In this document: in pieces, positions 25,343 to 64,000 of the stretch | How positions within the stretch are numbered: the first letter of the stretch is position 1 | Layout: each line of letters begins with the position of its first letter | DNA from: Candidatus Latescibacterota bacterium | GTDB lineage: Bacteria; Latescibacterota; UBA2968 | Assembly: GCA_965198115.1 (NCBI GenBank) | Contig: OZ240241.1 | Coordinates: 3,648,001 to 3,712,000 of the forward strand | Direction of reading: 5' to 3' | DNA length: 64,000 nt | Notes under the pieces: model-generated | The model's input: the letters and a program-made list of their open reading frames with translations, nothing else | Databases searched by the model: none | What the model was told of the DNA's origin: nothing | Translations under genes and position numbers: made by a program

Positions 25343-25417
25343 TGGTGACCCCGAGGGGAATCGAACCCCCGTTACCGGCGTGAAAGGCCGGTGTCCTAAC
25401 CGCTGAACGACGGGGTC
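25343..25417 (-). tRNA. tRNA-Glu(TTC)
   Basis: GACCCCG/CGGGGTC acceptor stem, CCGGC-CT-TTC-AC-GCCGG anticodon arm, GGTTCGATTCC T arm, CCA. Confidence 0.97.
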
Positions 25418-26652: not shown

Positions 26653-26729
26653 GGGCGATTAGCTCAGCTGGTTAGAGCGCTGGTTTCACATACCAGAGGT
26701 CACTGGTTCGAGTCCAGTATCGCCCACCA
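26653..26729 (+). tRNA. tRNA-Val(CAC)
   Basis: GGGCGAT/ATCGCCC acceptor stem, CTGGT-TT-CAC-AT-ACCAG anticodon arm, GGTTCGAGTCC T arm, CCA. Confidence 0.97.
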
Positions 26730-26852: not shown

Positions 26853-27572
26853 ATGAAGGAAAGCCTCCACCGGCTGCTGGAACTCCAGGAAATCGACAAG
26901 GAAATCGGCACCCTCGAGCGTTCGAAGCAGGAGTTTCCAGACGAGATCGATCGACTCAAGAGCGAGCTCGAAAGCGCGAGAAAATCGATCACCGAAACGG
27001 AAGAACGCGTCGCGGAACTGGAAAGTGGCAGACGGGCAATGGAGGGCGAACTCGAGACCATTAGCGAAGACCTGAAAAAACATCAGGACCGACTTTACGA
27101 GGTCAAATCCAACCGCGAGTACGACGCGTTGCAGCTCGAGATCGAATCCCTCGGGAACAGAAAGGACGAGCAGGAGAACGGCATTCTACAGTCCATCGAG
27201 GACTTTGAGGATCTATCGGGTAAGCTCGATGAAGACAAGTCCGCCTTCTCGCAACGTGAGACGGAGATCCTGGATCGGATCAACGATCTTGAGTCCAAGC
27301 TCGGGTCTGTCGAGGGAGACATTAAAGGCTGGATGACCAAGCGAAAGAAAATCGAGAAGGTGGTAGATGCGCCCGCTCTTTCCTCCTACAACAGGATCCG
27401 GCGAATGGTACGCGGGGGCGTGGCCGCCGTCGCAATAAAAAAAGGCGCCTGCGGCGGTTGCTTCAGGCAGCTTTCGCCCCAGTTGCTCGTCGAAGCGCGA
27501 CGAACGGACAAACTCCTTCGGTGCGAAAACTGTGGACGCATGTTGATCTGGAAGGACGAAGTTTTAGTGTAA
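26853..27572 (+). CDS. Coiled-coil protein with C4 zinc ribbon (DUF164/CT398-like)
   Basis: LLELQEID, NREYDALQLEIE, CGGC..CENCGRML. Confidence 0.9.
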   Translation: MKESLHRLLELQEIDKEIGTLERSKQEFPDEIDRLKSELESARKSITETEERVAELESGRRAMEGELETISEDLKKHQDRLYEVKSNREYDALQLEIESLGNRKDEQENGILQSIEDFEDLSGKLDEDKSAFSQRETEILDRINDLESKLGSVEGDIKGWMTKRKKIEKVVDAPALSSYNRIRRMVRGGVAAVAIKKGACGGCFRQLSPQLLVEARRTDKLLRCENCGRMLIWKDEVLV

Positions 27573-27975
27573 GCGGGCCGGATGGTCGCGTCCCGAGGGG
27601 GCTTGCCTCCCGAGGGATGAGGAAAGTCCGAGCACCACAGGGCAGGATGCTGGGTAACACCCAGGCGGGGCAACCCGACGGAAAGTGCCACAGAGAACAG
27701 ACCGCCAGCGGGCCGGGTCACCCCGGCAGCGGGCAAGGGTGAAACGGTGGGGTAAGAGCCCACCGCGTCTTCGGAGACGAAGACGGCACGGCAAACCCCA
27801 TCCGGTGCAAGGCCTAATAGGAGCGGAGAGGCTGCCCGTCTCGTCCAGGCTGCTCGTCAGGGCTGCCACGCTCGGGTTGGCCGCACCGAGGTGTCGGGCA
27901 ACCGACATCCCAGATAAATGACCATCCGCCCGACCTCGTCGGGCGACAGAACTCGGCTTACAGGCCCGCTTGCAC
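27567..27975 (+). ncRNA. rnpB: RNase P RNA (type A)
   Basis: GAGGAAAGTCCG, GAAAGTGCCACAGAGAACAGACCGCC, GGTGAAACGGTGGGGTAAGAGCCCACC, ACAGAACTCGGCTTA; P1 stem gtgtaagcgggcc/ggcccgcttgcac. Confidence 0.97.
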
Positions 27976-28063
27976 GCTCGGCGGATCCAGATGCCCACGT
28001 TCATTCGAGCGAAGGCATCGGATCCGCCGAGTGTGTATCGACCCCTCAATCACCGGAGGCCCC

Positions 28064-51037: not shown

Positions 51038-52332
51038 GGGTTTGCCACGAAATAAGTGCTGCACTTTTCAAGGTAATGATCTTACGCTCGGAGTGTGGAC
51101 GTCGAAACTCTCCGAACGAAGTATGAAGCCTTGGCTCCGGTGCTGACGGAACGCACGCGTCGTCTGTGGGCCGCCACGGAAGCCGAAGCGTTGGGTCACG
51201 GTGGGATCGCGATTGTGGCTCTGGCGACAGGAATGTCCAGAGAGCGGATCTTTCGTGGCATTCAGGAGTTGAGGTCGGACGAACCTTTGGACCCGGCTCG
51301 CATCCGGCGTCCAGGCGGCGGTCGTAAGCGGAAGGCCGACACGGACCCGACGCTGTGGCAGGACCTGAATGATCTGGTCGAGCCAACGACTGCGGGGTCG
51401 CCTGACGACAATCCTCTGAGATGGACATCGAAGAGCACTCGCAAACTGGCCGCCGAGTTGCAAGCGATGGGGCATTCGGTGAGCCCCAGGATCGTTGCCA
51501 ATCTCCTGCACGAACACGATTACACGCTGCAGGCGAATCGGAAGACAAGGGAGGGATCTGCACACCCGGATCGGGACGCTCAGTTCGTTTACCTCGATGA
51601 TCGGATTAGCCAGCAGCAGCAGCAGGGCCTTCCCGTTATCTCGGTGGACACCAAGAAGAAAGAGTTGATCGGCGACTTCAAGAATCCTGGCCGAGAATGG
51701 CGACCCAAGGGAGACCCGGAGCGTGTGAAGGTACACGATTTCATAGTGCCTGCTCAGGGCAAGGCGATCCCTTATGGAGTGTATGATCTGAGCCGTGATG
51801 AAGGCTGGGTAAGTGTCGGTATCGATCACGACACGGCCAGCTTCGCCGTGAATGCGATCCGAAGTTGGTGGAAGAACATGGGACGGCCCGCCTACGGCAC
51901 TTCGACGCATCTGCTAATCACGGCGGACGCAGGCGGCAGCAACGGCGCCAAGACGCGGCTGTGGAAGTGGGAGCTGCAGCGCTTTGCGAATCGCACTGGC
52001 CTGACGATCACCGTATGCCACTACCCTCCTGGCACTAGTAAGTGGAACAAGATCGAACATCGCCTGTTCTCCTTCATCGCTATGAACTGGGCGAGGCAAG
52101 CCCCTGGTCAGCCTGGCTGCAACCGTGAATCTCATTGCCGGAACGACCACTCAAGCCGGTCTCCGAGTACGCTCCGAGATCGACAAGCGACCCTACCCTA
52201 ACGGGGTCAAGGTGACCGATGAACAGATGACCCAAATCGATCTCACTCCGCACGATTTCCACGGCGACTGGAACTACACGATCCGGCCAATGGCTCAACA
52301 TTGAGATCGACCGTTTATTTATTCGCGAACCC
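51038..52332 (+). mobile_element. ISAzo13 family IS
   Basis: Imperfect IRs GGGTTTGCCACGAAATAA / GGGTTCGCGAATAAATAA; TAA direct repeats at 51035-51037 and 52333-52335. Confidence 0.9.
51095..52304 (+). pseudogene. ISAzo13 transposase with an extra G near 52090
   Basis: ISVDTKKKE, TADAGGSN, PPGTSKWNKIEHRLF. MNWRGKPL is broken; the shifted frame ends FHGDWNYTI. Confidence 0.88.
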
Positions 52333-52370
52333 TAAGTACTTACCGCCGTACTTCTCGATACTTCTATGGT

Positions 52371-52442
52371 CGTTCCGGGCACCCGCGAACTTGCCGTGGG
52401 TCGAGGGGCGTCAGCCTCGAGCCGCGGGTGCTGCTGTTAGGC
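52371..52442 (-). repeat. attC-like site (R' non-canonical) after the VOC gene
   Basis: GCCTAAC, arms gcacccgcg/cgcgggtgc, then G-ACCATA where GTTRRRY is expected. Confidence 0.55.
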
Positions 52443-52529
52443 GGTGTTGTTTTGACTCTCTCAGCGACCACCGGAGCGTCCACTCCGGGAATGTAGCATC
52501 GAGGCACGGACCGGATCTGTGTCCTGAGA

Positions 52530-52946
52530 TCATCCACGATTCGCCTCGGTCGGGCTCGTGAAGTTGAGGTGGTTACCGAATGGGTCCAGGAGATGCAACT
52601 CCGTCTTCCCCCACGGCTGGTCGACCAGCTCTGTCCCGTGGTGTGTCCCCCCTGCCGCTTCGAGCGCGTCCGGATTCCTGCACTTCAGGTCGTCGTAGAA
52701 CACATACACATCTTCCACATCCAACCCGATTCCGATGCCTTCTGGTACCTCCTTGTGCTCGGTCAGATGCAGAGCCAGCTCTCCATCTGCGATGCCGGGA
52801 CTCTCCCCTCTAGAAACCCCCATAAGCACCGGGAATCCCTCTTCGTGGCGCCACTCGAAATCGATCTTGAATCCGAGGAAATCAACGTAGTAGCGGACCG
52901 CTTCTTCGTAGCTTTTGATGTACAAGCAGGGATATGCACGTGACAT
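52530..52946 (-). CDS. VOC/glyoxalase family protein (gene cassette)
   Basis: YYVDFLGFKIDFEWR, LHLTEH, PWG, DPFGNHL. Confidence 0.88.
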   Translation of the reverse strand: MSRAYPCLYIKSYEEAVRYYVDFLGFKIDFEWRHEEGFPVLMGVSRGESPGIADGELALHLTEHKEVPEGIGIGLDVEDVYVFYDDLKCRNPDALEAAGGTHHGTELVDQPWGKTELHLLDPFGNHLNFTSPTEANRG

Positions 52947-53049
52947 ACCAATCTCCGATCAGATTTCTTGAAGCTGTGCTGTCCGCGATTTCCCGGTCTT
53001 TTTACACCCACCCTAAAGACCTTAGCTAATACAGTAGCCAGCCAATGCC

Positions 53050-53130
53050 GCCTAACGGACAAGGCTGCCCGACGGCGCGAAGCGCTGTTTTGGCGGTGGG
53101 TATGGTGGGGGCGGGCAGCCGCAGTTAGCC
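53050..53130 (-). repeat. attC-like site (81 bp)
   Basis: GGCTAAC..ggctgcccg/cgggcagcc..GTTAGGC. Confidence 0.7.
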
Positions 53131-53223
53131 GCTGTTGCAGTCCCGGTCCCTCACGCGACCCTTCAAGGATGGAAGGGCGTCGCGTAGAGCTATCAGGAAT
53201 CGGTTCCCCTAACTGTCGACCTA

Positions 53224-55676
53224 TCAGGCCAAGCGACTAAGCCGGCTTCTGATGAAGGCCGTGATTTCGGCGAGTTCATCCTCCTCATAGTTCGACTCAA
53301 TGAGATCCCAACAGGAGAAGAATCCTAATCCAGAGGTCTGACGATAGAAATGCAGCCACGAATCACGGTCTGACGGCAAAGGGCCGTCGTAAGCATCGAA
53401 GAAAGCATTGGTGCAAGGGGTGAGGAGATCCTCCCGACCGAACCCAAGATCGAACTCCTGATTTGAGAAATGGAAATAGAGTCGCGAGAGGTCCATAAAC
53501 ACATGCCCCGGGCGCATCCCACCGAGATCAAGGAGGCCGGTCACCCGATCCCCAGAGATCATAATGTTGGTGGCGGAAAAGTCACCGTGGACCAGACAGG
53601 GGGTGAGCTCGTCGCTCAGTTCTTGGATGGTCGTTCTCAACCACGCTTGTAGCTTGGAAGTAGAATCGGCGAAAGGAGTCTTGAGGCCCGATCTTGCCTC
53701 AGTCAGCCATCTCTGGAGCTCGTATTCTCGGGCTGACACGAAAAAGGGGTTCTCCGGTCCTTCGACGGATCGAACTTCACCATCCTCGTAGGTCAAGAAC
53801 CACCAAACAGCGAAAACTGAACGAGACTATGCAGCGTAGATACGATCTTACCGAGTTGCGAGTATACAGACACCGCTACATCGAGTGAAAGGTCACAACC
53901 AATATCTCTCAGATTCTGTCCAGGAATGCGACTCTTGACGAGGAATTCACCGTCCACCCCCGTCACCCGGAGTCCGGTATGTAGAATCCGGGGGAGGAGG
54001 ATTGTGGTCTTCTCAGACAAGATCCGAAGAGCAAGTTCCTCACGATCGACCGATCTCTTCTTTTTTATAGAGACGTGCTGAACGACAACCGCTTCGCCGT
54101 GCCTCGGTTCGATTAGGTATGTGGGTTTGTCAATCCCGCCAGGAGCTCAGGTCAATAGGTGTGTAAAAGAAATCAGGCGGCCATCTTCCCGGTTTCGACC
54201 TGCGGTCCGGTTGAGTGTTTCTGATCGTAGACTTGTTGTAGCAAGTGTGGCGCGGTGAGTTTCCTGAATCGGCTCTCTGCGACCTTGAGCGTACGCCAGA
54301 TGAGAGTCGTGGCGTTCCTGACTTTCTTGAATCGCCTGGCGGCGTTTGTGCGAAGCCGAACGGAAGCAAAGGGGCTCTCGACGACGTTCGTGGTTCTCAG
54401 GTGTTTCCAGTGTTCCTTCGGGAAGTCGTAGAACGTGACCATCCGATCCCAGTCTCTTTCGAGCGTCTCCACGGCGGCAGGGAACTGTGAGCGATACCGT
54501 GCGGCAAAGCGTTTCCGGAGCTTCTCGGCCTCCTTTTTCGTGCCGGCATAGGGGATCTGGACGAGCAGTGCGCGGGCTTCAGCCTGTGCACGCTTGGCGA
54601 CCTTGTCGAGCACGTTGAGGATCTTGTGGTTCCAGCACCGTTGTTGCCGGCTCTCTGGCCAGACCTGATCAACGGCCGCCCAGATGCCCATATTCCCGTC
54701 CGCGGCGATCAGGACAGGATGTTCGAGCCCGCGATCCCGGAGATCCCGGAGCACCGTGAGCCAGGATTCTGTAGACTCTCGATAACCGGGTTCTATCGCC
54801 AGGATCTCCTTGCTGCCGTCGCTCATCGCGCCGATCACGACCAGCAGACACGCCTTCTCGCGCTCGAGCCCGGCTTTGACGTAGATGCCATCAGCCCAGG
54901 CGTAGACCAGTTCGCGATTATCCAGACGCCTTTCTTTCCAGTCCTGGAAGTCGACCTCCCACTTCCCTCGAAGACGAGCGATCGAGGTCGGCGAAAGCGG
55001 CGCGCCATCACCGAGCAGCGCACGCAAAGACAACTCGAAGTCGCCCTGGGAGAGACCGTGGAGATAAAGGTCGGGAAGCAGATCTCCAATGGCCCTGGTT
55101 CTCCGGGCGAACAGGGGGAGGATGCGGCTTTCAAACCGCTCTTCCAGACCACGAACCCGGGGACGCCGGACCTTGATCGTTCCGCAGCTCGTCGAGAGAC
55201 GCCGGGGCTTGCCGTAGCCGTTCCTGTAGCCCCTGGAGCGAACTTGGGAGTACTGTCTACTCGATCTTTCCTGCTTGCCCCCAGGTGTCCACACCGGACG
55301 AGCCTGCGCCGTGGGAAGGGCTATCGACCTCGGCTCGGCGCTCATACCACGACCGGCCCAAGAACGCGGTCGCCTCCTCCTCCAGAATGGACTGGAACCG
55401 GCCCTGGATCTCTTCACGGATCCAATCGTCAACCGTCTCCCACGTCGGCATGGACTTCAATGGGGCTCTATGCGTATGTTCCTTCACGGCGATCCTCCTT
55501 CCCAACCGGGCCTCTCACCCGGTTTTGTGTGAATCAACTATCTCACGGGAAGGGTAGGGTCGCCCTTTCTCTTTTTCCACACCTTTTGATTATAGCTCCC
55601 CGCCAGTCATTTGTTGCACAGACGAGATGTCACATTGGAGAACTTGCTCGAAAACCTGTTGTGAGAATCCGTTCAA
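53224..55676 (-). pseudogene. APH-family phosphotransferase cassette, interrupted by IS256 and two frameshifts
   Basis: Removing the IS joins MTG to GIDKPTY; downstream LVHGDFSATNIM, LLDLG. Confidence 0.75.
54143..55598 (-). mobile_element. IS256 family element, copy A (transposase frameshifted by an 82-bp insert)
   Basis: IRs gagctataatcaaaaggtgtggaaaa / gagctcaggtcaataggtgtgtaaaa; 8-bp TSD cccgccag (54135-54142, 55599-55606); YRNGY, WADG, QRCWNH, RTTN. Confidence 0.93.
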
Positions 55677-55680
55677 CTGT

Positions 55681-55754
55681 CTCTCACACTGGACTCTGGC
55701 GGCGCAGGGCACGCGCAACCGACCGGGACTGTGATGGCGGCTGCGGTGTTAGGC
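55681..55754 (-). repeat. Degenerate attC-like site (74 bp)
   Basis: GCCTAAC after the methyltransferase stop; R' reads GTGAGAG; arms pair weakly. Confidence 0.4.
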
Positions 55755-55825
55755 GTAGGCGGCTCCTTTCGGGCAAAGCCAATTGAGGAGAGTAATCGTC
55801 GCACGGTAGAACCAACTGGTGGGTC

Positions 55826-56614
55826 TCAGACCCTCTGGAGTATCAAGTAGATGTTCCCGAGTTCCCCGGACAGGTTCTCCCTGTCTTTCAATTCTTCGAA
55901 ATCCTCGCCGTATATCGCCACAATCTCAAACTGGCCAGATCGTTCAACCAAACTCTCGAGATCATCAAAAAGCCACATCCTTAAGGTGTGGCGGTCTTCA
56001 AGGTGTTCTAGCCTATCGTCTTGTTCGACTTGAAAGGAGCAAATCTCGTGGCTGAGCTTGGATTCCCTGTCTTCGGTGATGATTTCCCAGGAGGTTTTCA
56101 CGCGGATTCCGTCACGTACCATCGTCCAGCGGTCGTCGGGATCTCCGATGCCTTGAAGTTCGCCATCCTGAGCAAGATTCAGATGGACGATGTAGACACC
56201 GTTCTCTCGAAGGGAGGAACCCGTAGCTTTCAGGTGGGCGATCACATCGGCATCGGAAAGCAGATAACGAAAGCTGTTGATCGAATTATAAGCTGCATCG
56301 AATTCACCATGGATCTCAGACGAAACCATGTCGGCCAGTAGAATCTTAGCATCTTTCAGGCAGCCGGCGTCCGAGACAGATTGCTCCGCGTATTGGACCA
56401 TAGCAGGGCTTATGTCATAGCCTGTCACTCGAAACCCGTGTTTAGGAAGCACCCTCAGAAAGCGACCTGAGCCGCAGGCCGGTTCCAGCAAACGTGTCAC
56501 CGTAAACGGTACGTGTGTTTCGAATACCCTCTTGAAGAAGGCAACTTCGCGTGAAAGGTCCCAAGAGAACGCGATGTCGTAGATCTCAGGATGATCGTAG
56601 AGTTTGAAGCTCAC
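55826..56614 (-). CDS. Class I SAM-dependent methyltransferase (gene cassette)
   Basis: LLEPACGSGR, GYDIS.AM, ADM, FDAAY..INSF. Confidence 0.9.
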   Translation of the reverse strand: MSFKLYDHPEIYDIAFSWDLSREVAFFKRVFETHVPFTVTRLLEPACGSGRFLRVLPKHGFRVTGYDISPAMVQYAEQSVSDAGCLKDAKILLADMVSSEIHGEFDAAYNSINSFRYLLSDADVIAHLKATGSSLRENGVYIVHLNLAQDGELQGIGDPDDRWTMVRDGIRVKTSWEIITEDRESKLSHEICSFQVEQDDRLEHLEDRHTLRMWLFDDLESLVERSGQFEIVAIYGEDFEELKDRENLSGELGNIYLILQRV

Positions 56615-56649
56615 GTGTTTTCGTGCCCCTCAGTTTCTTAGCCGCTTAC

Positions 56650-56739
56650 GCCTAACGGTTTCACAATTCACGACGCCGCGAATGGGGGGTGCCGAAGGCC
56701 AAGCGCCGCAAGGCGCGCAACGGGAATTGCTGGTTAGAA
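56650..56739 (-). repeat. attC-like site (90 bp)
   Basis: TTCTAAC-cag-caattc..gaattg-tgaaacc-GTTAGGC with internal hairpins. Confidence 0.75.
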
Positions 56740-56784
56740 GACGGGATACTGCAACTTGTGCAAAAACTCGTCTCAGAGCAGAAA

Positions 56785-57780
56785 CTACCTTTGAGGGATC
56801 TTCACCTGGGAAAATTGAAAGTTCGGTCCTTTGGTATAAGTGGCCCCAAGACCCAGCCCCCAGTCATACGGCCCGGGGCCGGCTTGCTCTTCAGCCCACG
56901 CCTTCAGCGGAACACTATCCCATTCGTCCGTAAACCAGTATTGCGACGACGGATTGCCGATCGGGTCTTTGCCGAGCCGATCTGAACCATCGCCCGTGGC
57001 CCCCAGTAGCTGCCGTCGGATAGGCGCACTGCGGGCAATCACCTCTGGATCCTGTTCTATATAACCGCTCGGTCGTATCCATCTGGGCGCATAGCTGATA
57101 TAGAGGGCCTTGCGGAAGTTTGTGGAAAGGTTGGGGGTCACACTGTGCAAGATCGTGGGCCGCCATAGCATGGCGCTGCCGGCCGGTACGCGCAATGCGA
57201 AGATGTCCTCCGGATCGAGCCAGGACTCCCAGGTAGCCCGTTGCTCTCGGGTCCACTGGTAGCTACCGGGCACCATAAGGATGGTGCTGTGACCAGGCTC
57301 GGTATGATCCGAAACGTACCAGCCGACCTTAAAGTCCAGGAGGGGCATGCGGCCATCTATCGTCGTGCCAGCGAATTCTTCTTCATAATCGAAATGCCAT
57401 CCCAGCGATAATACGTCGGGATCGGTGTCGCCAGGCTGCGGCGCTTTATAGTCAAAAACGCTATCGCGATTTTGAATATTCCAGCCCATGGCATCGACGA
57501 CCAAGGGCAGGATGCGGGGATGATCGAGCAAGTCCATTATGACCTCATGACGTGCCACCGCATTGCGGACGACGACGCTGTCATTGGGACCCAAGCCACG
57601 TACTTTCCGAAGCTGCTCCGCCACCTCGTCCATACCTGCCCACAAGCGTTCTAGCTCGGATGGGTTCAATACACGCTCTAATACCGTGAACCCCTGTCCG
57701 TTGAGTTCATCTTTCTGTTGATCGGTCATAGCTATTGTCATCTGATTTCCCTCTACTTTTGTCGCAAATGCATCCTGCAA
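56785..57780 (-). CDS. PhyH family dioxygenase (gene cassette)
   Basis: QGFTVL, WHFD, VPGS, PAGS..LHS..N. Confidence 0.87.
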   Translation of the reverse strand: MQDAFATKVEGNQMTIAMTDQQKDELNGQGFTVLERVLNPSELERLWAGMDEVAEQLRKVRGLGPNDSVVVRNAVARHEVIMDLLDHPRILPLVVDAMGWNIQNRDSVFDYKAPQPGDTDPDVLSLGWHFDYEEEFAGTTIDGRMPLLDFKVGWYVSDHTEPGHSTILMVPGSYQWTREQRATWESWLDPEDIFALRVPAGSAMLWRPTILHSVTPNLSTNFRKALYISYAPRWIRPSGYIEQDPEVIARSAPIRRQLLGATGDGSDRLGKDPIGNPSSQYWFTDEWDSVPLKAWAEEQAGPGPYDWGLGLGATYTKGPNFQFSQVKIPQR

Positions 57781-57792
57781 AATACTCCTGTT

Positions 57793-57950
57793 GTCTAACG
57801 TTTCAGCAATCGCGAAGCCGGCCCTTCGGCAGGCTCCCTTCGACTTCGCCCCTCGACTCCGCTCGGGACAGGCTCAGGACAGCAGGACAGGCTCTCGCCG
57901 GTTTGGGTGGCTGGGTTCTTGGGCAGGGGGGCGCGTCCGCGGTGTTAAGT
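57793..57950 (-). repeat. attC-like site (158 bp; 88 bp without the nested repeat insert)
   Basis: ACTTAAC..ccgg/ccgg..cgcgattgctgaaac-GTTAGAC. The right arm resembles that of the 56650 site. Confidence 0.55.
57822..57891 (+). repeat. Three nested copies of a ~23-nt CCCTTCGAC-N3-GCTCAGGACAGG unit
   Basis: Outer 57822-57835 + 57883-57891; middle 57836-57849 + 57874-57882; inner 57850-57873. Confidence 0.7.
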
Positions 57951-58045
57951 GTCCGTGCCGGTGCCAGTGGTTGAGGACGCGAGTATAGAAGCATCGTCGT
58001 CTTGAGGTCTTGGTGACCAAGGCGTTCCTGAATGGTCCGGATGTC
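57930..58045 (-). pseudogene. intI: C-terminal fragment of an integron integrase (IntI)
   Basis: DIRTIQERLGHQDLKTTM, then (1-nt shift) FYTRVLN; matches IntI box II DIRTVQELLGH.D..TTMIYTHVLN. Confidence 0.75.
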
Positions 58046-58062
58046 GTTAAGCTGTCTGCAGA

Positions 58063-58857
58063 CTAGCGCTCCACGATGTGGGCAAACAGCGGCCTGACCT
58101 TCTCGGGTAGCGCGGCGTACGTCTCGGCCGTAATCAGCTGCACGTCTTCAGGCCGGGTCCCGGTCTCTTCGGCCACGCGTTCGTACTCGATTGTGCCAGG
58201 GATCAGGTGATTCAGGTTAAGCCACCAGGGCGCATACCGGACCACAACCGCGACCCGGGTGCGATCGCTGACGTTGGCGGCCGTGGCGTGCCACATCCGG
58301 CTATCGAGGATCAGCACGTTCCCGGCTTCGCCCGTGGCCTGCATCTCGGTCGGATATGGAGCGTGAGCGTCGACGCCGATGTTTCCGGAGGGATTGCCGG
58401 GTGCTCTATGGCTCCCGGGAACCAGAAGCGTACCGCCTGTTTCCTTGGTGAAGGTCGTCAGCATCCATATCGTCGTCAGGTGCATGACGGCGTCGGCGTA
58501 GGGCGCCGGAATATGTCGGGACTGCTTCTGGCCGAACGGCCAGTCTGAGTGCCAGTTGTCCCGTTCCTGCCCCGGCGTGGTGACCAGTCCCGTGGTAAAC
58601 GATACCCGTGCGTACGGGCCGAAGAATGCCTCCACGATGCCCAGCACACGGTCGTCCGCCAGATAGGGCGCCAGGGATTGGTTGTAGGTGATAAGGCCCC
58701 TAAGGGCGTGTCGAGCGCCCTCTTTACCCCTGGCGTCGGACCTCGCGGTTTCAACGATGCTCTGGCAGACTGCGTCTACCTCGTTCTCCGGTATGACGCC
58801 GGGAACAACGCACCATCCGTCCATCTTGATGCGCCGCACCGCTTCTTCTTTTGACAA
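58063..58857 (-). CDS. PhyH family dioxygenase
   Basis: DGWCVV, WHSDWP, VPGSH, DSRMWHA..N..R; GAGGAGG RBS. Confidence 0.9.
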   Translation of the reverse strand: MSKEEAVRRIKMDGWCVVPGVIPENEVDAVCQSIVETARSDARGKEGARHALRGLITYNQSLAPYLADDRVLGIVEAFFGPYARVSFTTGLVTTPGQERDNWHSDWPFGQKQSRHIPAPYADAVMHLTTIWMLTTFTKETGGTLLVPGSHRAPGNPSGNIGVDAHAPYPTEMQATGEAGNVLILDSRMWHATAANVSDRTRVAVVVRYAPWWLNLNHLIPGTIEYERVAEETGTRPEDVQLITAETYAALPEKVRPLFAHIVER

Positions 58858-59113
58858 GCCAACCTCCTCGCCATCACTATTGTAAGAGCGGCAACGTCAC
58901 TCCTATCGAACGCGTGGCATGTTCTGACACGCCGATGACGGGTCGTTTGCGGACTACTAAAGGCAACCACCAAGACACGAAGACACGAAGAAAGGCAACC
59001 GAGACAGCACGTTCCCACACGCCTCGAGCCCGAGAAGATGGCCGTCATGCGGCCCGACGCCGTCACCCTCGGAGACGTCTACCTGATGGTATCCCACGGG
59101 CGACAAACAACTC

Positions 59114-59423: not shown

Positions 59424-60811
59424 GGTGTTGTGCCTATCGTAGTTGAAACTTAGAGGGCTCCAAACTTACGTTGGGTAGACGTGTAGGAGCGTATACCCGT
59501 AAGAAAGGAGCCCAGATGGAGAAGCTATTTGTAGGCGATGGTGAAGTCAAGGTTGAGGGCGATGTCATCGATTTGGAGACGCGTTTGTCGGTGATCCAGG
59601 CGTTGATCCCGTTGGGTCTGGAGGCAGTGGCAGACCTCCTCCAGCAGGAGGTCGAGCAGCTCGCAGGCGTTCGGTATGCGCGCAAAGGTTCGGAGCAGGC
59701 GCATCGTCGGTGGGGAAGCCAGAAGGGATCCGTGTATCTGATGGACCAGAAGCTCCCGTTAGACGTTCCCCGGGTGCGCGACGTCGAGGCCGACGCAGAG
59801 GTTTCCCTGGCTGCATACCGGGCTCTACAGACGCCCAAGAAGACGGACGAGGGGCTGTTGCTTCGTGTTCTCAAGGGGATCTCGTGCCGCAACTACAAGG
59901 CCTGTGCCGAATCGGTTCCAGAAGCGTTTGGTATCTCAGCGTCCTCCGTCTCGCGGCGGTTCATCAAAGCCACCGCGAAGAAGCGGAAGCAGTTCCAGGA
60001 GCGTCCCCTCGACGACTACGGCTTCGTGACCCTGTTCATTGACGGAAAGAGCTTTGCCGACAAAGAGATCGTGATCGCTCCGGGGGTCACGATGGACGGC
60101 CAGAAGATCCCCCTGGGCTTCGTCGAATCGGCGACGGAGAACGAACGGATCTGCCGCCAGCTGATCCAGGACCTCATCCGGAGAGGCCTGTGCTACGACC
60201 AGGGCCTTCTCGTTGTGCTTGACGGCTCAAAGGGACTCCGCAGTGCTGTCACCAAAGCCCTCAAAGGGTATGTGCGCGTGCATCGCTGTCAGTGGCACAA
60301 GCGCGAGAATGTCGTCAGCTATCTCCCGGAGAGGGAACGTCCAAGAGTTCGACGGAAGCTCCAGAAAGCCTATGACTGCGACACCTACGAGGAGGCAAAA
60401 GCCGCACTCGAATCACTTAAACCCGAACTGAAGCTGATGAATCAGTCTGCCGTAACGAGCCTCGAGGAAGGCCTGGAGGAAACCCTGACCCTCCACCGGC
60501 TGGGTATGCTCCCATTCCTGAAACGAAGCTTCCGAACCACCAACTGCATCGAAGCCCTCAACAGCAGGACCGGCGAGCTCACTCGGAAGGTCAGACGCTG
60601 GAACAACTCTCCCCAGAGACACAGATGGGTGGCTGCCGCACTCCTCGACATCGAACCTCGCCTGCGACGCGTGAGCGGATACAAACATCTTCCCCTACTC
60701 AGGCAAGCACTGAACAAAGATCTGAATCTCGACAACGAACAGAATGCTCAAAAGAGAGCCTGACCAAACTACGGGGCCCGATGAGTTTTCAACTGACTAT
60801 GGGACTTGACC
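59424..60811 (+). mobile_element. IS256 family element (distinct type)
   Basis: 8-bp TSD tgcgttcg (59416-59423, 60812-60819); imperfect IRs containing AGTTGAAA. Confidence 0.92.
59516..60763 (+). CDS. IS256 family transposase
   Basis: FIDG, LDGSKGL, HRCQWHKREN, RTTNCIE. Confidence 0.92.
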   Translation: MEKLFVGDGEVKVEGDVIDLETRLSVIQALIPLGLEAVADLLQQEVEQLAGVRYARKGSEQAHRRWGSQKGSVYLMDQKLPLDVPRVRDVEADAEVSLAAYRALQTPKKTDEGLLLRVLKGISCRNYKACAESVPEAFGISASSVSRRFIKATAKKRKQFQERPLDDYGFVTLFIDGKSFADKEIVIAPGVTMDGQKIPLGFVESATENERICRQLIQDLIRRGLCYDQGLLVVLDGSKGLRSAVTKALKGYVRVHRCQWHKRENVVSYLPERERPRVRRKLQKAYDCDTYEEAKAALESLKPELKLMNQSAVTSLEEGLEETLTLHRLGMLPFLKRSFRTTNCIEALNSRTGELTRKVRRWNNSPQRHRWVAAALLDIEPRLRRVSGYKHLPLLRQALNKDLNLDNEQNAQKRA

Positions 60812-61647
60812 TGCGTTCGAGCGGGCGATAGAAAGACAATGGACTGACTTTTGCAGATCGGAGCAAGATGATTGGACTCTGGAAATCGTGTCCCTCAATA
60901 TTCCCGACTTGCATACAGCGTTGTTTGAAAAAGGCGGACTCGAGCGAGGCGATTTCGACGTCGCTTTTGTCGTGACGGATTGGATCGCTGAAGCAGCTGC
61001 CGGGCATCACCTCGCGGATTTGCAGCCCTACTTGAAAGAGCTGCCACCGGAGGATTACCCCCACGGATGGGATCACTCTCTATTACGCTTCCAGACTTAT
61101 GGAAACGAAGTATATGGTCTTCCCTACCATAACGGACACAAATGCCTGATTTATCGAAAAGACCTTCTCGACGACCCAGGAGAACGGGCAAACTATGAGA
61201 GAAGATTCGGTAGTCGTCTTGCAGTACCGCAAACGTGGGATGAGTTTACACGGGTTGCCCGGTTCTTTAATCGCCCGAAAAGTGGAATGTCGGGTGTTGT
61301 CTTTGTCGCGCATGAGGATGGATACAATACTGTTTGCGACTTCTGTCTTCATTTGTGGTCACGAGGGGAGAGCTTGGTTACGCGAGTGGGAATCTTGTTC
61401 TGAACCATCCACTTGTGGAAGAAACGTTAGCATTCTACCGCAAGATTGTGAATGATCCCCAAATTGTCCCCGCGCATACGCGGATGTTTGACGCCGTAGA
61501 ATCGGGGATGGCTTTTGTTAGGGGCGAAGCGGCCATGATGATGAACTGGTTCAGCTGGGCAGCGCAGTGTGAACGTCTGTCCGAATCCAAAGTAAAAGGG
61601 AAGGTTGGGGTTGCTCATTTGCCGAATGAGAATGAGCAACCCGGGTT

Positions 61648-63001
61648 GAGCTATAATCAAAAGGTGTGGAAAAAGAGAAAGGGCGACCCTACCCTTCCCG
61701 TGAGATAGTTGATTCACACAAAACCGGGTGAGAGGCCCGGTTGGGAAGGAGGATCGCCGTGAAGGAACATACGCATAGAGCCCCATTGAAGTCCATGCCG
61801 ACGTGGGAGACGGTTGACGATTGGATCCGTGAAGAGATCCAGGGCCGGTTCCAGTCCATTCTGGAGGAGGAGGCGACCGCGTTCTTGGGCCGGTCGTGGT
61901 ATGAGCGCCGAGCCGAGGTCGATAGCTCCACGGGCTACAGGAACGGCTACGGCAAGCCCCGGCGTCTCTCGACGAGCTGCGGAACGATCAAGGTCCGGCG
62001 TCCCCGGGTTCGTGGTCTGGAAGAGCGGTTTGAAAGCCGCATCCTCCCCCTGTTCGCCCGGAGAACCAGGGCCATTGGAGATCTGCTTCCCGACCTTTAT
62101 CTCCACGGTCTCTCCCAGGGCGACTTCGAGTTGTCTTTGCGTGCGCTGCTCGGTGATGGCGCGCCGCTTTCGCCGACCTCGATCGCTCGTCTTCGAGGGA
62201 AGTGGGAGGTCGACTTCCAGGACTGGAAAGAAAGGCGTCTGGATAATCGCGAACTGGTCTACGCCTGGGCTGATGGCATCTACGTCAAAGCCGGGCTCGA
62301 GCGCGAGAAGGCGTGTCTGCTGGTCGTGATCGGCGCGATGAGCGACGGCAGCAAGGAGATCCTGGCGATAGAACCCGGTTATCGAGAGTCTACAGAATCC
62401 TGGCTCACGGTGCTACGGGATCTCCGGGATCGCGGGCTCGAACATCCTGTCCTGATCGCCGCGGACGGGAATATGGGCATCTGGGCGGCCGTTGATCAGG
62501 TCTGGCCAGAGAGCCGGCAACAACGGTGCTGGAACCACAAGATCCTCAACGTGCTCGACAAGGTCGCCAAGCGTGCACAGGCTGAAGCCCGCGCACTGCT
62601 CGTCCAGATCCCCTATGCCGGCACGAAAAAGGAGGCCGAGAAGCTCCGGAAACGCTTTGCCGCACGGTATCGCTCACAGTTCCCTGCCGCCGTGGAGACG
62701 CTCGAAAGAGACTGGGATCGGATGGTCACGTTCTACGACTTCCCGAAGGAACACTGGAAACACCTGAGAACCACGAACGTCGTCGAGAGCCCCTTTGCTT
62801 CCGTTCGGCTTCGCACAAACGCCGCCAGGCGATTCAAGAAAGTCAGGAACGCCACGGCTCTCATCTGGCGTACGCTCAAGGTCGCAGAGAGCCGATTCAG
62901 GAAACTCACCGCGCCACACTTGCTACAACAAGTCTACGATCAGAAACACTCAACCGAACCGCAGGTCGAAGCCGGGAAGATGGCCGCCTGATTTCTTTTA
63001 C
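61648..63001 (+). mobile_element. IS256 family element, copy B (right IR interrupted by ISL3)
   Basis: Near-identical to copy A in inverted orientation; identity stops at atttcttttac. Confidence 0.92.
61741..62991 (+). CDS. IS256 family transposase (intact; start uncertain)
   Basis: YRNGY, WADG, IAADG, QRCWNH, RTTNVVES. Confidence 0.92.
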   Translation: MGRRIAVKEHTHRAPLKSMPTWETVDDWIREEIQGRFQSILEEEATAFLGRSWYERRAEVDSSTGYRNGYGKPRRLSTSCGTIKVRRPRVRGLEERFESRILPLFARRTRAIGDLLPDLYLHGLSQGDFELSLRALLGDGAPLSPTSIARLRGKWEVDFQDWKERRLDNRELVYAWADGIYVKAGLEREKACLLVVIGAMSDGSKEILAIEPGYRESTESWLTVLRDLRDRGLEHPVLIAADGNMGIWAAVDQVWPESRQQRCWNHKILNVLDKVAKRAQAEARALLVQIPYAGTKKEAEKLRKRFAARYRSQFPAAVETLERDWDRMVTFYDFPKEHWKHLRTTNVVESPFASVRLRTNAARRFKKVRNATALIWRTLKVAESRFRKLTAPHLLQQVYDQKHSTEPQVEAGKMAA

Positions 63002-64000
63002 GGCTATATCCGGATCTCTCAACGAGCTGAAGTGGGTGAAGGTGCCGTGGTTCCTGGCATGGGGGCGCGGTTAGCGTGTGCGGAACCTCTTCGGAATCTG
63101 CTCAGGGATGTTTATGTCTCCGACGGTAAGGAAGATCATATCGTTGAATGCGTCGAGTGTGCGGAATCCGCTGGCTCGGTTCTTGACGATTTGGACGATT
63201 CGGTTGAGGCCTTCGGCGATGGCGTTGGTAAGACGCGTGTTCACGAATGCGAGGACGCCGAAGAAGTGCTGTCGCAGGGTCCTGACGAACTTTCGCAGGG
63301 GTTCACGTCGACTTCTGAGTGCGGACGTCGTCCAGCATTTCAGGAAGCGTTCGGCAGCCCAGGGCGCTTTGTATTCCCAGAACTGCTCGAACTCGTCCTT
63401 GAGTCTCCAGGCTCTATAGATTCGGTAGTTCGCCTTCTCCAGTGCTTTGAGTGTCCGAGTATCCCCTCTGGAGCGTGTCGCTGAGTGCCGGTAGAGGAGC
63501 CATCGGAGGCCCTTCATGGCTTTGCGCTCATCCGGGGCAGCTTTACGCCACTGGTCCTTACGGACCTCGTCAACGGCGGCATTGAGAGCCTTGACGATGT
63601 GAAAGCGATCGAGGACCAGCTTGGCATTCGGACAGTGTTCCTGGATGGCTCCGATGTAAGCTTCGCTCATGTCGCAGCAGGCCCACTCGATCTTGGATCT
63701 CTGGTAGGGACTGAGAGCCTCTGTGAAGAACCGATCGATCGTTTTACGCGCCCTGCCGCGGCCAACCCACACCACGCAGGAGCGGTCCAGATCGTAAACG
63801 AGCGTGGCGTACCTGTGACGCTTGGCGTAGGAGATCTCGTCGATCCCGATGGTTTTGAGCCCTCGGATACGATGACCTTCACGAAGCCGCGTGATGGATC
63901 GGTGAAGGAGATCCGACAGCGTCGAGGCAGAGATGCGCAGCAACTCGGACGCCGCCTTCTGCGTCATGGTCTGGCAGTAGCGCAGCATGGCATACTCGAA
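63002..64000 (-). mobile_element. ISL3 family IS (partial); transposase 63071 to beyond 64000
   Basis: IGIDE, CCDMSEAY, DRFHIVK, TNAIAEGLN..ASGFR; GGCT terminus at 63002. Confidence 0.92.

Follow-up and report, generated by a model that had tools for sequence, protein, structure and literature searches.

A decaying integron-like gene cassette array with atypical sites in the genome of a Candidatus Latescibacterota bacterium

It is stated in the available part of one study (PMC3053210) that the integron integrase IntI recognizes extrahelical bases of the bottom strand, and in the available part of another, Cury et al. 2016 (PMC4889954), recombinases found near attC sites without intI_Cterm were judged not to be IntI. 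Another system, recombinase-associated acquired interbacterial defence (rAID-1) of Bacteroidales (Ross et al., 10.1101/471110), consists, as far as its available description goes, of a XerD-like recombinase at the 5' end and of co-directional genes, and its repeated intergenic sequences were called reminiscent of integrons. It carries immunity genes with a guanine plus cytosine (GC) content of 41% or less, and the same description reports relatives of its recombinase above 50% in Bacteroidales only. This layout is the only close one in print for the locus presented here, an array of single genes on the minus strand of a 64,000-nucleotide stretch (the window) of Candidatus Latescibacterota bacterium, assembly GCA_965198115.1, contig OZ240241.1 (G000:C1:3648001-3712000, where G000 is the source genome, closed, 8.43 Mb, GC 59%). 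In every sequence test available the array behaves like an integron, yet as far as its sequence tells it is outside the IntI/attC family; it is probably an orphan remnant of an integron-like array built by a short, non-IntI tyrosine recombinase. Neither the geometry of these sites nor recombination by the short enzyme is the subject of any paper in the literature searched, most subscription papers being outside that search.

The array shares with integrons and with clusters of attC sites lacking integron-integrases (CALINs) one gene per unit, a common orientation of all genes, cores of AAC and GTT, sites that are chimeras of halves from neighbouring cassettes, a better-folding bottom strand and the state of an array without enzyme. 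Unlike those of integrons, the window sites have no L box with extrahelical base, their spacers are 4 versus 6-8 nucleotides long (5 versus 5-6 in integrons), an outer stem is conserved beyond the cores, and the linked recombinase is co-oriented and lacks the IntI insertion. With rAID-1, compared by its available description, the window array shares two or more co-directional genes and differs in a cargo of enzymes (by Pfam) with GC of 51-57% and in having no 5' XerD-like recombinase; a truncated recombinase heads the array at 6.41 Mb of the same genome.

Along the gene strand PhyH1 comes first; it is followed by a recombinase tail of 92 nucleotides, site A, PhyH2, site B, a methyltransferase gene and the left half of site C; then the APH-family gene (split by an IS256 element and frameshifted), site D, a vicinal oxygen chelate (VOC) gene, site E, an attI-like stretch, an ISAzo13 element and the 3' part of a lamin-tail gene. 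Pfam places the five genes in PhyH, PhyH, Methyltransf_25, APH and Glyoxalase_7, so the families and the minus strand given for them in an earlier note on this DNA are borne out. The same note had taken all five as cassettes of an array with seemingly lower GC than the backbone. The lower GC holds (0.548 over 3,987 bp, insertion sequences (IS) and PhyH1 left out, versus 0.600 +/- 0.024 per kb in the backbone). Four of the five genes stand as cassettes; PhyH1 was tried and rejected, since it has no site upstream and a backbone-like GC of 0.628, and it has 7 paralogues in the genome at E<1e-12.

The core-bounded palindromes between these genes are indeed present where they had been placed. The layout of the window sites can be read as TAAC, a left spacer of 4 nucleotides and an ungapped 8-bp stem, followed after the loop by the other stem arm, a right spacer of 7-8 nucleotides and GTTA. 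Five related sites are discerned: A, B and D are whole, with AAC and GTT cores, E breaks at the G, and C is a left half. Segment 52371-52442, formerly called a half site, thus has both stem arms, with the break at the G of the core, whereas 55681-55754, formerly a degenerate site, holds a left half only, the supposed right-core GTT being part of an open frame that continues into the APH gene. For C no stem was found at any offset tried (best 4/8); its flank pairs at 10/11 positions with the start of cassette 2. Site A keeps the 4-versus-7 spacing with a stem of only 5/8 pairs, and a palindrome like the repetitive extragenic palindromic (REP) elements occupies its loop (~57825-57897); an uninterrupted site with a nearly identical left arm occurs in G050 (L099). 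The strict site grammar has 2 matches in 52,300-58,900, a number reached by none of 1000 dinucleotide shuffles.

These sites are not integron attC, judged by their layout of L box and extrahelical base, which fails, and the label of integron attC sites or a CALIN proposed earlier is not supported: the sites are of a family found behind a recombinase without the IntI insertion. The canonical L-box rule (5-nucleotide spacer, 8-nucleotide arm with an extrahelical base, 7-nucleotide partner, 5-6-nucleotide spacer) gives 2, 1, 4 and 2 of 7 pairs in A, B, D and E, and 3, 1, 2 and 2 on the other strand; eight attC controls give 6-7 of 7. These controls, from class 1 and Thiodictyon integrons in five of eight plasmid regions, were chosen from 12 candidates, of which two aac(6') duplicates and two poor Thiodictyon picks were dropped. 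The spacer offset is +3 or +4 in A (weak), B, D and E and 0 or -1 in 8/8 class 1 rows. The canonical layout was scored by grammar, as the eight control sites aligned too poorly for a covariance model, and the canonical grammar has no match in the array region; neither did an Rfam scan of that region match any family. The bottom strand folds better (lower energy) in 80/80 family sites and in 4/4 window sites, and stem mismatches can be read as G.T 10 times on the bottom strand and 3 times on the top one.

The family to which the sites belong was recognized in relatives. Seven loci with true IntI and 13 with the short recombinase were compared at first, the IntI set growing later to 21 loci. An open spacer scan (2-9 and 4-11) brought up the 4-versus-6/7/8 form in short-type loci, and the strict grammar counted 34 family sites in 11 of the 13; the exceptions, L046 with no sites and L047 with only two model matches, are outside the later grammar tally. 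In that tally canonical and family sites number 5 and 0 in IntI loci, 13 and 0 in five control loci, and 0 and 81 in 17 short-type or array loci that were picked for having such sites. In a comparison of 33 of the 34 sites, seven of the 8 stem pairs change on both sides, with 0/500 shuffles reaching the score, in sites that had been selected for pairing.

Model R1 was built from 20 short sites of relatives, none from this genome and all behind a short non-IntI tyrosine recombinase. Run over the whole window it finds B at 48.3 bits (E 1.3e-9), E at 32.1 and D at 30.3, the next best match having 11.7; it finds nothing in the 21 true-IntI loci or in 8 plasmid IntI loci. Its matches number 21 in this genome and occur in 44/61 genomes searched, some of which are training sources. 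When nhmmer was started from single sites, relatives were found by E alone (G000 8096631, 5652808 and 74786). Two further family sites lie 1 and 7 kb past the right end of the window, at genome positions 3713169-3713291 and 3719233-3719330 (minus strand), among IS elements, and may be scattered parts of the window array.

Part of the evidence for mobility comes from the cassette ends. Insertion of a circle at G|TT implies that the bases after the first core must pair with those before the last core, and three cassettes comply: in the three testable ones the start fits its own end at 7, 10 and 8 of 11 positions, in each case the closest fit among five possible partners (p ~1e-4). In 3/3 testable cassettes the two ends of a single co-oriented gene rebuild one site. 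In relatives, neighbouring pairs agree in all three variable bases in 13/16 cases in training arrays and in 29/32 in six non-training arrays, compared with 2/34 and 5/47 within one site and 6% all-against-all. A third array of this genome (G000:C1:8093600-8099000, minus strand), which has an attI-like head and no recombinase, shows matched cassette ends at 10 and 9 of 11.

Four of the 23 sequencing runs listed were compared: X1, which is probably the source run, and X4, X5 and X6 from three separate studies. A contig of X1 is identical over 52337-54168. The PhyH2 unit (56690-57803, ~97% alike) recurs in X4, X5 and X6, as does the methyltransferase unit (~92% alike), the two units lying on different long contigs and beside other neighbours. 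The upstream matches end at 57803 for PhyH2 and at 56657 for the methyltransferase, that is 4 and 1 nucleotides past the G of the upstream core, and the contigs continue for 1.9-8.1 kb in other DNA, these borders being read from match ends and not from the letters beyond. At its other end the PhyH2 match covers the left arm of B and reaches into the B loop; in X4-X6 site B has an additional base at 56731, and its offset there is +3. The joint of 53088 to 57944 seen in X4-X6 may represent an allele that lacks the three middle cassettes, or it may be just one more family site. Homologues of the methyltransferase at 64-68% in G045, G048 and G031 stand behind a family site arm and different genes and share the cassette-start bases of the window unit; the one in G045 has family sites on both sides. 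At the thresholds used, neither the methyltransferase nor the VOC gene was found in any of 30 same-family genomes, while relatives of PhyH2 at 43-48% occur in 28 of them, with no sites in the 5 loci examined. A fixed operon, which the earlier note had named as the refuting case, was looked for and rejected: the order of lamin-tail gene and ftsK is kept in 5/5 relatives, and none of the five genes is there.

It is proposed that each cassette would once have been a circle whose two ends formed one site, and that such circles would have been inserted with the crossover at G|TT. The substrate would be the folded single bottom strand, which is the plus strand of the window, and the enzyme the short recombinase. 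Since the sites have no extrahelical layout and the enzyme no IntI insertion, another recognition code is likely, in which the asymmetric loop of 4 versus 6/7/8 and an outer stem would be for the short recombinase what the extrahelical bases are for IntI. A co-oriented short recombinase and an attI-like site at the head are absent in the window array, where an attI-like stretch is at the tail instead, and the array is predicted to be frozen now unless an enzyme arrives from outside.

The search for an intact intI suggested earlier gave none in this genome, the best TIGR02249 piece having 108 bits versus a cut-off of 265, and this partial match, at 6.41 Mb, is a short recombinase; the 92-nucleotide tail in the window falls outside the IntI insertion. 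The recombinase at 6.41 Mb is truncated at the 5' end (6410046-6410720, first ~150 residues gone), and behind it, in the same orientation, come a core and six family sites between single genes; no intact short recombinase was found in this genome. The fuller array there (G000:C1:6398600-6410720, minus strand) consists of the truncated recombinase, an attI-like core, an IS256 element and then cassettes, with metallo-hydrolase-like, beta-lactamase-like and GNAT genes (labels by eye) among its cargo. The short enzymes lack both IntI insertions and keep the catalytic residues R-K-H-R-H-Y; their scores fall short of the cut-off for TIGR02249 and come close to or exceed the one for NF040815. In a quick tree they are set apart from 23 IntI with a support of 99 (Shimodaira-Hasegawa-like approximate likelihood ratio test). 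In most loci the short recombinase is followed by an attI-like stretch that has a core (read by eye). Some short recombinases (L039:4101-4390) are extended at the N terminus by ~90 residues for which Pfam has no match, and the class also contains an IntI subgroup that sits on a long branch and has altered words at the C terminus (DIRRIQ, frames of 420-440 residues; L032, L034, L112, L113, L115).

An enzyme of a Chryseobacterium plasmid is 38.7% identical to the short recombinase of L039 and groups with it, and on an Acinetobacter plasmid (L124:2967-5117, NZ_CP104735.1) the gene that comes immediately after a recombinase of the short type (47% to that of L039) is tet(X3). A GTTA core with typical flank precedes tet(X3) and a TAAC left half follows it; from these letters it looks like a first cassette of the short-recombinase system, although there is no match in the three variable bases. 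One query found no short recombinase in viral contigs.

The strongest competing explanation, still an unlikely one, is a true CALIN, in which a co-oriented intI once headed the array, the 92-nucleotide tail is its remnant and IntI recombined atypical sites. The tail carries IntI-type words directly before site A: it reads DIRT...TTM and then, in another frame, Y-T-R-V-L-N. Co-oriented IntI exist according to the available text of PMC4889954, some IntI tolerate odd extrahelical bases according to that of PMC3053210, and a true IntI is present in 17/168 genomes of the phylum. Against this stand the failing L-box rule and the absence of family sites from all IntI loci mentioned above. The DNA of the tail scores 94-96 versus three IntI tails and 81 and 58 versus two short recombinases, with shuffle maxima of 58-65, so that its margin over the genome's own short recombinase is modest (96 vs 81). 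Moreover, the tail leads to a cassette-end flank, not to an attI-like stretch, and this flank recurs without the tail in 5/131 other genomes and at G000 8096647; a DNA search of 131 other genomes of the class did not bring up the tail itself. The tail may be debris within a cassette since lost or what is left of an intI formerly at this place, and it is the main support for the CALIN label.

It is less likely again that another enzyme, a 314-residue IS91-linked recombinase or XerC/D, moves real cassettes and that the short recombinase merely travels along. Recombinases of this 314-residue YLHV type, which group with the short type, precede the arrays L118 and L119 of G042 (at least 11 sites), a genome with several such copies and 59 matches of model R1, and a 304-residue frame of the type is present in the genome studied here (~3498400-3499270). 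That copy has no array, and in L030 and L031 the 314-residue type follows IntI with no sites there; the attI-like stretch and core behind the short recombinase also speak for the latter. The least probable explanation, which takes the sites for terminators or for palindromic repeats of a dispersed kind and has the genes gathered by IS with no site-specific recombinase, would suit a very IS-rich genome, a REP-like family entering site A and folding energies unremarkable against shuffles in all 7 stretches folded (z -1.7 to +2.2), but it is contradicted by outer arms that pair across the gene and not within one site as repeats would, by matches in other runs that stop at the core and by terminator-like matches rarer than in shuffles (4 vs 6.6).

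Several observations weigh against a remnant built by the short recombinase. There is no short-type or XerD-like recombinase in or near the window, and the sole recombinase piece in the window looks like IntI; the arrays L118 and L119 are headed by the different, 314-residue recombinase. Model R1 misses sites A and C, and the A that follows AAC in all 80 reference sites is not found in B and D. The folding asymmetry between bottom and top strand owes partly to base composition, and the IntI loci, several of which are short contigs, hold just 5 canonical sites in 252 kb, so the contrast is weak there. As for mobility, the methyltransferase match in X4-X6 ends at 55795, 41 nucleotides short of site C, and the contigs of these runs may be from other species. 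Close homologues of PhyH2 (71-76%, G058 and G060) are without sites, a whole site adjoins the gene in 0/11 VOC loci, and 4/7 methyltransferase loci have no sites.

The earlier description of a decaying array with atypical arms is supported; the IS256 element, the frameshift in APH, the REP-like repeat in site A, the intI-like tail and the attI-like stretch had been missed. The IS256-family element (1,456 bp, 145 long genome matches) is flanked by an 8-bp target duplication (54135-54142 / 55599-55606), and the APH-family gene is broken a second time by the frameshift near 53,800, which is present in the X1 contigs too; the APH region lies outside the coverage of X4-X6. Site C has lost its right half and site A has taken in the REP-like repeat. 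The G at which site E breaks is joined to the attI-like stretch, which ISAzo13 cuts just before the GTTA core; the counterpart of this stretch at 8.099 Mb runs on into a core and array, and the stretch in the window resembles the DNA that precedes the first core behind short recombinases. One of 71 IS left ends (2982510) carries a core with cassette-start flank which, judged by its letters, would continue the attI-like stretch. A hybrid ISAzo13 copy joins the array to the 3' part of the split lamin-tail-domain gene, whose 5' part ends at an ISAzo13 end 2 Mb away (G000 1629482). These two facts make it likely that the place of the array beside ftsK is an accident of IS rearrangement; relatives carry other genes beside ftsK. 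All coordinates of the array are collected in Table 1.

Table 1. Parts of the cassette array and adjoining features, in window coordinates
Feature	Position	Strand	Remarks
PhyH1, PhyH-family dioxygenase gene; chromosomal neighbour	58063..58857	-	PF05721; GC 0.628
Recombinase tail, frameshifted 3' end, IntI-like	57970..58061	-	TIGR02249 positions 275-296, E 2.9e-4
Site A	57793..57967	-	cassette-end flank, both cores, weak stem
Cassette 1, 1,143 bp, carries PhyH2 (open reading frame (ORF) 56785-57780; start probably 57741)	56656..57798	-	ends pair 12/18
Site B, complete	56650..56739	-	stem 7/8, offset +4
Cassette 2, carries class I S-adenosylmethionine (SAM) methyltransferase (ORF 55826-56614)	55748..56655	-	ends pair 16/18
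Site C, only its left half, with flank and TAAC core; position of the lower end approximate	55700..55765	-	
IS256-family element in start of APH-family gene	54143..55598	-	PF00872
APH-family kinase gene, cassette 3; upstream site half lost	53224..54142	-	two PF01636 pieces
Site D, complete	53050..53130	-	stem 8/8, offset +3
Cassette 4, VOC/glyoxalase gene (ORF 52530-52946)	52371..53055	-	PF19581, PF00903; ends pair 13/18
Site E, both arms, cut at G of right core	52371..52442	-	stem 8/8
attI-like stretch, fused to site E	52333..52370	-	38/39 identical to G000 8098982-8098944
ISAzo13-family element, hybrid copy	51038..52332	+	PF07592

The genome as a whole is crowded with IS elements (76 long ISAzo13 matches; 145 and 82 long IS256 matches), and its GC skew is too disturbed to assign a replication strand. 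The load in the window is dense (51038-52332, 54143-55598, 59434-60800 and 61700-64000) and consists of ISAzo13, three IS256-family copies of two kinds and ISL3; a sugar-binding protein gene (60888-61708) is broken between such elements. Two short repeats of the window are genome-wide, the REP-like palindrome at 57825-57897 (>70 matches) and a CT-rich tandem word at 58963-58993 (>30). A promoter scan gave 2 matches versus 2.6 by chance. Ordinary RNA genes of the window are three tRNAs and the RNase P RNA (1818-1890, 25346-25417, 26653-26726 and 27570-27976).

This locus alone is a fossil, and its value lies in clear cassette borders and in the odd intI tail. It can be supposed, with slightly better than even chances, that there is a second class of integrons, in which sister recombinases of IntI, without the domain regarded as essential for reading attC, capture and shuffle genes by a single-strand hairpin code of their own. 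Such a class would be common in the lineage, given its presence in 44/61 genomes searched, and would carry metabolic enzymes here, with a core and half site flanking tet(X3). An additional idea, by which the fusion of intI tail and cassette end would be a trace of the two systems having exchanged arrays or borne one another as cargo, is improbable. Surveys keyed to the IntI insertion and to the canonical attC shape would miss such arrays or mislabel them as CALINs. If the short recombinase does move cassettes, this would show single-strand cassette recombination without the IntI domain, make the origin of integrons testable and open an unmined pool of cassettes.

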